A stretch of 64,000 nt of DNA. It comes from a virus. This document shows, piece after piece, positions 26,252 through 34,063 of this stretch (position 1 is its first letter; each line of letters starts with the position of its first letter). The DNA lies in the IMG/VR virus record IMGVR_UViG_3300007351_000004. One strand, written 5' to 3'. The notes under the pieces are model-generated. The model was not told the DNA's origin. It searched no databases and saw only the letters and a list, made by a program, of their open reading frames with translations. Both the position numbers and the translations under genes were made by a program.

Positions 26252-26716
26252 TATGAACAACCAACACGAGAAATTTATGGACTACGCTGTTCGAGAAAAC
26301 CTGAAGCGCTTTGTTACGGCATTTCCTGAATTTAAGCATCTGCCAGAAGAGCAAGCAGCCTGGTGTATGGCGATTGACTCGCTAATGGACGAACTAGCAG
26401 ATTTACGCCAGAAAGTAGCAAGAGAGAAAAGCAAACAGGAGATCTAAATATGTCCACACTCACGAATAGCCATAAAGTTCTGCTTGGCATCGCAACAGAA
26501 GATGAAAAGAATGCCCATGAGACAGAGGAACGCCAAGCGGCTATTGAAAGCGCCGCAAACGCTATTGAAATGGCACTAGACTATCTGAGCAAAGATCCCG
26601 ATAGTCTGGAAGACGTTGAAAAATCCATCCGCGCCGCTGTAGGTAAAATCCGACGAAACATATGCTAGACTAATTTATACTTATATTTATTTTCGTCCTT
26701 TGTGGAAAGGTCTATT

Positions 26717-27319
26717 ATGTCATGGCAGAACGTATATGCACAACTAGGAATCACGCCTGAAGATGAGAGACTATATAAACTGATGCTCATTCACGAAAGA
26801 GAGGTAAAGGTGTGCACGTTGGCCGAAGCTTCGGATCTTGTGGAATTTGAACAGTCAAACCCCCGGCACTGTTACGCGATGAAAACTATTGTTGATTGGG
26901 CTGAAGCCGGATACATCCCCACCCCCGGCGATCTTCTGAACTTACACGCCGAATTATTCCCGTACGGGGGATATTATAGAACATGCGACGTGTATATCAA
27001 GGGATCGTCGTTCGTGCCGCCGCGTTACAATCATATTCCCCTGTTAATGAGAAATTGGTATCATGATATGCTATGGTGGCTGTCCTCCAGGGAGGATCCC
27101 TATACAATTCTGGCAGAGATTCATTTGAAATTGACTCAGATCCACCCGTATTCAGACGGGAACGGACGGATCGCCCGTATGGTGCTCAACCATAACGCGA
27201 CTTATTTAAACCTACCCTTTATCCTGATCTCGCAGCGCAACCGAAACACGTACTTAGATTGTCTTGAAAATGAGGACGTTCCTGCGCTCGCCCGGCTGTT
27301 CAAGAATCTTTCGTTCTAG
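26717..27319 (+). CDS. fic: Fic-domain protein (AMP-transferase motif intact)
   Basis: HPYSDGNGRIAR = HPFxDGNGRxxR; upstream GYYRT..V.I.GS.FVPP. Confidence 0.9.
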   Translation: MSWQNVYAQLGITPEDERLYKLMLIHEREVKVCTLAEASDLVEFEQSNPRHCYAMKTIVDWAEAGYIPTPGDLLNLHAELFPYGGYYRTCDVYIKGSSFVPPRYNHIPLLMRNWYHDMLWWLSSREDPYTILAEIHLKLTQIHPYSDGNGRIARMVLNHNATYLNLPFILISQRNRNTYLDCLENEDVPALARLFKNLSF

Positions 27320-33339: not shown

Positions 33340-33368
33340 TTGACAAAGCATAATTAGCATGATATAGT
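33340..33368 (+). promoter_or_regulatory. Sigma70 promoter of the RNA operon
   Basis: TTGACA-17-TATAGT; predicted +1 about 33375, the first G of the tmRNA-like RNA. Confidence 0.8.
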
Positions 33369-33374
33369 ATGTAC

Positions 33375-33462
33375 GGGTCTGAAGGTATTCGACAGGGAGA
33401 AAGTCAGCAGTTTAATCGCTGGCGAGTAAATCTGGACCGGGGCTCAATTCCCCGCAGATCCA
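33375..33462 (+). ncRNA. ssrA: Mini-tmRNA (tRNA-like domain only)
   Basis: GGGTCTG/CAGATCC acceptor with G3:U70 and A73; stemless D-loop ending TTCGACAGGG; 3' TGGAC-CGGGG-CTCAATT-CCCCG; only ~35 nt internal, no tag frame. Confidence 0.8.
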
Positions 33463-33465
33463 AAT

Positions 33466-33537
33466 GCCTGCTTAGTTTAACTGGCAAAACGCGCCATTTG
33501 TACTGGCGGAATCTCAGTTCAAGTCTGAGAGCGGGCT
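33466..33537 (+). tRNA. tRNA-Thr (anticodon TGT), CCA not encoded
   Basis: GCCTGCT/AGCGGGC acceptor, CGCCA-TT TGT AC-TGGCG, CTCAG-TTCAAGT-CTGAG. Confidence 0.9.
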
Positions 33538-33539
33538 TT

Positions 33540-33918
33540 GGTTGGTAGGAGGTTGGCTTAGAAGCAGCCATCCTTTAAAGAGTGCCGAGTGGAAGAGAGC
33601 GCCGATCTAACCAGTCGGGTAATCTCAAGTTCTGGTGCATGAGACGGGTGGTGCCCGGTAGCCGTGTCCCATCGGTATGTTGCGAAACCAGAATACCACA
33701 CGGAATGGTAGCACTCTAGGGCGTCCTAATAGAGAACCCGTACTATGTTTTTCCTTCTCTAGAACGATGAACTAGAGCAAGCCAGGGGTTGCTTGTATGT
33801 TTGCATAGTACGGGAGGAAATGCGAATTAACCTGTCGGGATCGGATATGGGATGGTCTTGGCAGCAATGCAAGCAACGTGGCCGTCTGAGGCTTTGGCGT
33901 AACAGCACACTACCAACC
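33540..33918 (+). ncRNA. 23S rRNA GTPase-associated-centre (H43/H44, L11 site) mimic split by a 313-nt structured insert
   Basis: 33544-33583 + 33897-33914 join to GGTAGGAGGTTGGCTTAGAAGCAGCCATCCTTTAAAGAGT|GCGTAACAGCACACTACC; closed by 9-bp GGTTGGTAG/CTACCAACC stem. Confidence 0.88.
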
Positions 33919-33920
33919 TT

Positions 33921-34063
33921 TTGCGACTGAACCTCTGCTAGTCGGAGTAGTAGGCCGCAACCGGGGGCGCTGGGCTCCCTTGTTATCCGCCCCAGCGATC
34001 TTGGTCTGTCGTTGGGTTTGATATGGGGCTTTGCCGTGTGCCCCAGACCAGAAACGCGGCAAA
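33921..34063 (+). ncRNA. Structured RNA segment with hairpins and a pseudoknot
   Basis: TTGCG/CGCAA, CGCTGGG/CCCAGCG, GGTCT/AGACC, GGGGC/GCCCC, loop TTTGCCG pairing with CGGCAAA. Confidence 0.5.

Follow-up and report, generated by a model that had tools for sequence, protein, structure and literature searches.

The closest described counterparts of the RNA reported here are the two elements of 23S ribosomal RNA (rRNA) that form the binding site of translational GTPases: the GTPase-associated centre (GAC; H42–H44, Escherichia coli positions 1051–1108) and the sarcin-ricin loop (SRL; H95). The RNA is encoded at positions 33540–33918 of IMG/VR virus record IMGVR_UViG_3300007351_000004 (64,000 nucleotides (nt); this whole stretch is termed the window, and all window features given below lie on its + strand) and represents a phage family that resembles the GAC in the H43 and H44 hairpins and their loops, the 1082–1086 pair and the tertiary core. 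In contrast to the GAC of the ribosome, the mimic is free-standing and phage-encoded, contains a variable clamp instead of H42 and carries a large domain between the equivalents of positions 1090 and 1091; it further deviates by the family signature GAGU, a U1090–A1101 pair and a UUUG linker, and its A1067 is not invariant. The SRL is resembled in the AGUA/GAA bulged-G motif, the one C–G pair and the GNRA tetraloop; unlike H95, the phage copy is placed on an unrelated, covarying stem inside the inserted domain and occurs in one class of the family only.

The same two rRNA modules have been studied off the ribosome as "ribosome-in-pieces" oligonucleotides, which are laboratory constructs on separate molecules (Munishkin and Wool 1997, as cited in PMC3496166); the phage RNA differs from these in being natural and under selection and in having its modules joined. 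The GOLLD and ROOL RNAs are likewise located in phage transfer RNA (tRNA) clusters, measure hundreds of nt and are of unknown function; however, the mimic matches neither of their covariance models, its architecture is different, and no rRNA mimicry has been described for them. As regards its proposed mode of action, the mimic can be compared with decoy-type RNAs (ribosomal-protein leaders, 6S RNA, Y RNA (YrlA), phage RNA anti-CRISPRs and phage tRNAs that evade anticodon nucleases), in which an RNA imitates a cellular RNA or DNA site to capture its partner. No RNA among these is known to reproduce a functional rRNA centre in free-standing form and in trans. Searches of Rfam 15 with the window and 14 relatives (gathering thresholds and E up to 10) yielded only tRNA, transfer-messenger RNA (tmRNA) and one GOLLD match, none of which covers the element; no such phage RNA was described in the open literature and preprints (~8.4 million items, subscription-only papers not being covered), and the exact sequence of the H43 loop appeared in the open literature only in a paper on the L11-RNA complex. 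The family is thus new with respect to Rfam 15 and the searchable literature, as had been supposed in a preliminary description of the locus that knew of no comparable phage system.

Architecture of the Mimic in the Window

When the segments 33544–33583 and 33897–33914 are joined, exactly 58 nt result that correspond to H43/H44 (1051–1108), just as the preliminary description had maintained; 47 of the 58 are identical to the 23S rRNA of Salmonella LT2. Eight of the 11 mismatches make up four compensatory pairs (1052/1107, 1053/1106, 1058/1080 and 1090/1101), U1108C converts a G–U into a G–C pair, and the remaining two (A1089G and U1097C) concern unpaired positions (H44 loop); the compensatory changes claimed earlier, including that at 1090/1101, are also evident against Salmonella LT2, whereas the seven differences of the preliminary description had been counted against the 58-mer of T. 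maritima.

The RNA begins with the 5' clamp strand GGTTGGTAG (33540–33548), which forms nine Watson–Crick pairs with its exact complement, the 3' clamp strand CTACCAACC (33910–33918), in place of H42 (E. coli 1047–1055); this 9-bp clamp of non-rRNA sequence had been recognised correctly from the start. The equivalent of G1056 (33549) is situated outside the clamp and opposite A1103 (33909), the single A between the H44 copy and the 3' clamp strand. Based on the rRNA alignment and on the pairing in 89 relatives, the H43 copy (1057–1081) extends from 33550 to 33574: a GGC/GCC stem closes the 9-nt A1067 loop UUAGAAGCA, and positions 1057–1059 pair with 1079–1081. The subsequent junction 1082–1090 (UUAAAGAGU; 33575–33583) includes the U1082–A1086 pair, A1088 and U1090. 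It is followed by the inserted domain of 313 nt (33584–33896) between 1090 and 1091, with a closing helix (GCC 33584–33586 with GGC 33890–33892) that covaries in the relatives and, 3' of this helix, the UUUG linker (33893–33896). In the upper H44 copy (1091–1102; GCGTAACAGCAC, 33897–33908), 1091–1092 pair with 1099–1100 as G–C and C–G around the loop GUAACA (GUAAYA), and the pairs 1087–1102 and U1090–A1101 connect this part with the 5' half of the molecule. The predicted product is a non-coding RNA of approximately 379 nt that bears a faithful copy of the GAC (H43/H44) at its ends and is predicted to be stable. According to the alignment, all nucleotides that build the tertiary fold of this domain and those that contact uL11 are retained in the window RNA, whose insert converts the three-way junction of the rRNA into a four-way junction.

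The bacterial large-subunit (LSU) rRNA covariance model matched positions 33550–33602 (model positions 1098–1143; 26 bits, E 1.5e-7), and this was the sole rRNA-like match in the complete 81-kb phage genome (terminal repeats); since the model gives a single short match in the whole genome, the flanks are not rRNA. The covariance-model check proposed in the preliminary description thus recovered the H43 region and nothing else resembling rRNA. Contiguity with H42, the rest of domain II or other rRNA was not observed, the flanks being a tRNA and the non-rRNA clamp; the element does not belong to an rRNA gene. The earlier view of a free-standing structured RNA as opposed to rRNA debris is borne out. 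The L10/L12 stalk site, which the preliminary description mentions for this rRNA domain together with H42, is absent in the window member, where H42 is replaced by the sequence-variable clamp.

Covariation and Conservation

Covariation was analysed in 89 members of canonical spacing that had been found through their 3' half, so that the 5' half is unbiased by the search, and each pair was compared with the maximum of 1000 column shuffles; every pair tested lay above this maximum, a strongly positive outcome of the covariation check that had been called for. Pair 1058–1080 was paired in 100% of the members and in six pair types (UA 38, GC 23, AU 23, CG 3, GU/UG 2), pair 1057–1081 equally in 100% and in three (AU 77, CG 11, GC 1), and 1082–1086 covaried as well (UA 42, CG 23, AU 18). 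The eight clamp pairs (1047–1054 with 1105–1112) were formed in 72–100% of the members, with at least four pair types in seven of them and three at 1054–1105; the first three pairs of the insert (closing helix) were found in 100%, 98% and 89%, again with covariation, and 1087–1102 and 1090–1101 were paired in 89 of 89.

Twelve positions were invariant throughout the set (G1055, G1059, U1060, G1071, C1072, A1077, C1079, A1084, A1085, G1087, A1088 and U1090), and the compact tertiary fold is built from them: U1060, G1071, C1072, A1084/A1085 and A1088 do not vary, and 1082–1086 is maintained by covariation. The invariant positions overlap with the contact set of the uL11 C-terminal domain (1058–1060, 1062–1065, 1075–1083 and 1088; PMC1802607). 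Position 1061 is an A in 33% of the members; the U1061A substitution has been used in vitro to stabilise the tertiary structure (PMC1802607). Further features common to the family are the signature GAGU at 1087–1090, the U1090–A1101 pair and the near-constant UUUG linker between the insert and G1091. Position 1067 is an A in 75% of the 89 members (G in 19%), and conservation is 73% at G1068 and 79% at A1070. A1067, which rRNA keeps, is the contact of thiostrepton and EF-G. Because the core is invariant and positions 1067, 1068 and 1070 vary, the fold and the uL11 face are more constrained than the EF-G/thiopeptide apex.

A second insertion point exists between A1077 and U1078 in about a quarter of the members retrieved by 3'-half seeds. 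The A1077/U1078 insertion consists of an extra hairpin or a larger domain (e.g. in L235, L263, L173, L291, L157 and L214).

The Phage RNA Family

The 20-nt H43 core was present in 94 IMG/VR contigs and belonged to true rRNA in two of them (L069 and L081). Nearly all others displayed the same design, i.e. a variable clamp strand, GGANG, H43 and NUYUAARGAGU, the insert, GCGUARNAGCAC-AC and the complementary clamp strand, and the H43-core search thereby yielded 61 distinct elements of 101–416 nt. A second search used the last 18 nt only (UUUG and the H44 half) in two seed variants, which matched at least 119 and 83 contigs; among the matches listed, an H43-like core was located upstream in 144 of 169 new sites, corresponding to at least 123 distinct elements. 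Altogether, more than 200 IMG/VR contigs share the architecture, including the same 3' half; 3' halves that had been located by clamp complementarity alone were noisy and were kept out of the statistics. As hundreds of independent phage contigs repeat the split architecture, a chance match is excluded.

Members were also found in finished genomes of cultured phages. Read directly, an unannotated element is located in the gap between CBB_405 and CBB_406 of Pectobacterium phage CBB, after the 2'-5' RNA ligase gene and before a terminator in Xanthomonas phage XacN1, and between tRNA-Asn and tRNA-Pro in Pseudomonas phage pf16 (L140); the member of Cronobacter phage GAP32 was read via its IMG/VR copy (L246). 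Serratia phage BF, several Erwinia phages (pEa_SNUABM) and the Pseudomonas phages Milchi and Astolliot gave BLAST matches to the 5' half only. A scan of 185,579 species genomes returned 28 true members; the bacterial assemblies that contain members are assigned to Clostridia (including isolates, e.g. Flintibacter muris DSM 110149), Bacteroidota, Bdellovibrionota, Chloroflexota, Nitrospirota and candidate-phyla-radiation bacteria, and their elements probably reside in prophages or in mis-binned phage contigs. In sequencing data, the element was found in 20 runs from 16 studies. A chimeric assembly, considered in the preliminary description as a possible cause of the finding, is incompatible with the recovery of the element from the complete genomes of cultured phages and from numerous independent samples. 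The several hundred phage RNAs of the family lie for the most part within tRNA arrays. A tRNA was located within 300 nt of the element at 121 of 224 loci, always on the same strand, and within 20 nt at 78 of 224; in the window, the element starts 2 nt after a tRNA-Thr gene of the same orientation.

One contig of 193 kb (IMGVR_UViG_3300028591_000087) contains two different mimic copies, L166 and L201, with deviating H43 loops (UUAAAAGCA and UUCAAAGCA) and deviating inserts; two unlike copies on one contig imply that paralogous diversification occurs. In L157, L208 and L214, an rRNA-like H42 sequence (AGACAGCCAGGAUGUU ... CACUGGCCGAG) replaces the arbitrary clamp. These H42-retaining members hint at an origin from rRNA and may represent intermediates; judging from this helix, they may also be candidates for L10 binding. 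The phage tRNA arrays that harbour family members contain a GOLLD RNA in one case (L014, 685–1176, - strand, 164.8 bits) and tmRNA genes in others (L017, 853–1296; L082, 3380–3461). Finally, Paenibacillus phage Pd_22F (L141; MZ092003.1, ~83.4–84.0 kb) contains more than 500 nt of contiguous, unannotated, genuine 23S rRNA; it is no mimic but represents host DNA, a transduced fragment or an artefact of the assembly.

A Sarcin-Ricin Loop Copy in the Insert

The insert of the window RNA contains an SRL-like hairpin (33800–33826) that had been overlooked in the preliminary description. Its core AGUACGGGAGGAA (33807–33819) comprises the AGUA/GAA bulged-G motif, the C–G pair and a GNRA tetraloop; 12 of 13 positions are identical to the SRL of Salmonella, a similarity that is not significant alone (BLAST E 2.7) and gains its significance from the comparison within the insert class. 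The searches with 3'-half seeds, through which alone the true relatives of this class surfaced, revealed six diverged relatives of 376–429 nt. By the class alignment, the window insert class comprises at least seven RNAs, six of which bear the SRL core on a covarying stem: L270, L288 and L298 have AGUACGAGAGGA, the exact E. coli core 2654–2665, L242 has the same sequence with GGUA replacing AGUA, and L260 has the variant AGUACAGAAGGAA with an AGAA tetraloop; in L277, the SRL core is absent at the homologous place. The 7-bp stem under the core showed compensatory changes in six of its seven pairs, and the strict pattern AGUA-N-GNRA-N'-GA[A/C] occurred twice in 45 kb of family elements as against 0.15 occurrences expected from the surrounding phage DNA. 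The class alignment and the consensus fold also indicate a long-range helix within the insert (GUGG 33589–33592 with CCAC 33696–33699). The window class thus joins copies of both rRNA elements of the translational-GTPase binding site in one RNA, and the mimic in the window covers both rRNA halves of the factor-binding site.

None of the 40 IMG/VR matches to the exact E. coli-type SRL 14-mer was located inside a mimic, all being fortuitous occurrences in coding regions or parts of true rRNA; the SRL copies of the family end in GGAA, GGAG or GGGA and are therefore missed by the exact 14-mer. No further significant rRNA-like segments were detected when all inserts were compared with 23S rRNA by BLAST, and the LSU covariance model, which is insensitive to short split pieces, did not match five class relatives at E up to 1. 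With the start of the window insert as a search pattern, only L041 (IMG/VR) and L136/L137 (metagenomes) were retrieved, which have the base of the insert in common with the window and lack the SRL hairpin.

Structure of the Inserts

The inserts of the family range from 45 to ~600 nt and fall into unrelated classes; the smallest members, of ~100 nt in total, have an insert of 45 nt and keep the whole GAC copy. Each insert is a closed helix placed between two consecutive base pairs of H44, and it is a designed branch, not an intron. The mimic had previously been described as split into two pieces: the two halves are real, yet what separates them is not a break but an insertion point that is designed and found family-wide. 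Models of group I and group II introns did not match the window at E up to 10. Insert-containing contigs were identified in three RNA libraries (covering 33557–33923 with one mismatch, 33592–33840 identically, and 33649–33874), in which the depth was zero over the 1.5-kb flanks; none of the contigs contained the spliced joint of 33583 to 33897, although a rare spliced form could escape notice in contigs. In two samples, the element continued into different downstream sequence, i.e. the same RNA gene is present in another context.

In the run contigs X15 and X6, the sequence corresponding to 33552–33923 was 99.7% identical to the window and that past 33923 was unrelated to it; other contigs matched the window flanks at ~90% only. 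Either the RNA gene moves from one context to another or it is conserved to a higher degree than the DNA around it. The commonest insert class (class-A; e.g. L140 of phage pf16, L043, L016 and L027) is characterised by a common 3' arm with the order RAUAGUA..., CACCCC, a 3-bp stem with a GNRA or UAAC loop, GGUAAGG and ...GAA. The hairpin between its AGUA and GAA is irregular and may represent a further bulged-G (sarcin-like) module.

Proposed Function and Alternative Explanations

For phage tRNA arrays, a role in countering attacks on the translation apparatus has been proposed, and a decoy for effectors that attack the factor-binding site would fit such a setting, a proposal to which we give roughly an even chance. 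In the mechanism envisaged, a tRNA-like RNA, the tRNA-Thr and the mimic would form one transcript from the sigma-70-type promoter upstream (see below), and tRNA-processing enzymes would cut the RNA out of this polycistronic precursor. It would then bind uL11 via its conserved core; the partner would be the protein of the host, since phage-encoded L11 (PF00298) was found in none of five genomes (the window genome, a 518-kb relative, CBB, XacN1 and pf16). Off the ribosome, the RNA would act as a decoy or sponge and intercept proteins whose usual docking sites are the L11 stalk base and the SRL. The likeliest targets would be ribosome-targeting effectors (Tre23-type H44 ADP-ribosyltransferases, SRL nucleases) or, alternatively, regulators such as RelA and translational GTPases, with the outcome that translation keeps going for the phage. 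Precedents are available for the single interactions: PMC3496166, citing Munishkin and Wool 1997, gives binding of EF-G and IF2 to SRL and thiostrepton-domain oligonucleotides in isolation, with a Kd of ~4–6 µM for the 27-mer, and a reference in that paper describes that ricin and alpha-sarcin stay specific on a synthetic loop. The type VI toxin Tre23 ADP-ribosylates H44 at 1095–1098 (PMC8661411). Overall, a structured RNA copy of the GAC (and of the SRL) acting as a decoy or sponge is the best explanation (probability roughly 0.55), the function being wholly inferred; that the RNA, together with host uL11, rebuilds the factor-binding site off the ribosome as a counter-defence or takeover decoy, which would absorb immune or competitor effectors aimed at the ribosome or capture RelA or translational GTPases, is a more tentative proposition, with rather less than even prospects.

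Several points weigh against this reading. The variability of A1067, G1068 and A1070 is unexpected for an EF-G or thiopeptide ligand and, at A1067, argues against either as the main ligand family-wide; with an A at 1067 in only three quarters of the members, the antibiotic sponge considered in the preliminary description likewise appears weakened. The SRL copy is limited to one insert class, so that the notion of a whole factor site fails for the family at large, and in the window itself GGGA replaces GAGA, with a G at the position of A2660. A decoy directed against an enzyme must be abundant or bind tightly. The RNA evidence consists of assembled contigs, which indicate presence only and neither ends nor strand nor level, and the zero depth over the flanks is weaker evidence because the element lies in another downstream context in two samples.

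Among the alternatives, a sponge for uL11 itself would imply that tight uL11 binding is the one conserved task of the RNA. Produced at high copy from tRNA operons, it would capture free or exchanging uL11; ribosomes deprived of uL11 could not activate RelA, and guanosine tetra- and pentaphosphate ((p)ppGpp) would remain low, so that phage production continues. The invariance of the tertiary core and the uL11 contacts (contact list of PMC1802607) but not of A1067, the frequent stabilising A1061 and the lack of a phage L11 in the five genomes would suit such a sponge; it leaves unexplained, however, the SRL copy in one class as well as the large, varied inserts, and the stripping of uL11 off existing ribosomes within one infection cycle is in our judgement kinetically doubtful, so that we consider it unlikely. 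If, on the other hand, the GAC copy were a compactly folded handle that recruits uL11 to protect or localise the RNA (e.g. beside ribosomes or stalk proteins), with variable inserts carrying differing functions, the size range of the inserts and their unrelated classes, each with its own conserved motifs, would be accounted for, as would the second insertion point after A1077, which resembles a scaffold with display sites. Nevertheless, the ~100-nt members leave little room for a separate function in their 45-nt insert and yet maintain the whole GAC copy, and the near-perfect identity to the rRNA loops would be needless in a generic stabiliser; this possibility is regarded as quite unlikely, too.

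The rRNA sites bound by ribosomal proteins are likewise copied in the autoregulatory leaders of ribosomal protein operons, and a cis-regulatory site of this type could be suspected in the mimic; however, the genes downstream of it are those of an exonuclease, a primase and a helicase, with no ribosomal protein gene among them, an L11 gene is missing in the five phage genomes, and tRNAs stand on both sides of most members, with 121 of 224 loci having a tRNA within 300 nt, which renders cis-regulation very improbable. It is just as hard to maintain that the 313 nt are an intron or ribozyme that is spliced out to leave a 58-nt GAC mimic: As in group I introns, U is the last nucleotide of the 5' piece in the window and G that of the insert, but the lack of a match to the intron models, the non-homologous inserts of down to 45 nt, their closed helix followed by the UUUG linker, and the presence of the insert in contigs of three RNA libraries without any joint largely refute it. 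The element might also be taken for an rRNA pseudogene, for debris of host rRNA or for an assembly chimera on account of the 47/58 identity of the core to 23S rRNA and of the true rRNA fragments in some phage records (Pd_22F, L069 and L081). This interpretation is refuted, with next to no probability left to it, by the non-rRNA flanks and the single 46-position LSU match in the complete 81-kb genome, by the split design and covarying clamps shared by hundreds of contigs and by cultured phages with finished genomes, and by the recovery of the element from 20 runs of 16 studies.

Should the decoy interpretation be correct, the family would be the first RNA known to mimic a functional centre of rRNA in trans and would found a new class of anti-defence RNA in phages: Phages would not only import tRNAs but also make a stand-alone imitation of the GTPase centre, which would add a new chapter to the viral manipulation or protection of translation. 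It would furthermore point to still unknown host effectors that hit the L11 stalk base or the SRL and would provide structural biology with a natural, evolutionarily tuned "ribosome-in-pieces". The cultured carriers (phages of Pectobacterium, Cronobacter, Xanthomonas and Pseudomonas) make these questions directly testable; as a result of its absence from Rfam, the family is invisible to annotation at present.

Genomic Context and Candidate Transcription Unit

In the window, the mimic is preceded by a candidate sigma-70-type promoter (33340–33368; TTGACA, 17 nt, TG-n-TATAGT), which agrees with the consensus in 11 of 12 positions and has the TG of an extended -10 element, the assignment being a consensus match only. 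The first RNA of the putative unit is an 88-nt tRNA-like RNA (33375–33462) with a G3:U70 acceptor stem, A73 and a T arm; it is without normal D or anticodon arms, was not called by ARAGORN at 33375–33462, and matched the 3' end of the tmRNA model weakly (6.5 bits). Tentatively, it can be regarded as a tmRNA of which only the tRNA-like domain (with G3:U70) is left, a reading preferred to that of an ochre-suppressor tRNA. The following tRNA-Thr(UGU) (33466–33537; 56.7 bits) ends 2 nt before the mimic.

The neighbouring genes encode an RNase H, an exonuclease, a primase and a DnaB-type helicase; the element is located in an early/replication region and not beside any ribosomal protein gene. Downstream of the mimic, the segment 33919–34085 is poor in open reading frames and rich in G+C and has two terminator-like hairpins (33963–33979 and 33991–34016); its fold was no better than that of shuffled sequences (z = -0.6). 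At a distance of 6 kb upstream of the RNA unit, positions 26702–27319 encode a protein of 205 amino acids with a Fic/DOC domain (Pfam E 1.8e-16). Doc-type enzymes modify EF-Tu, and there may be a link between this protein and the translation theme of the locus.

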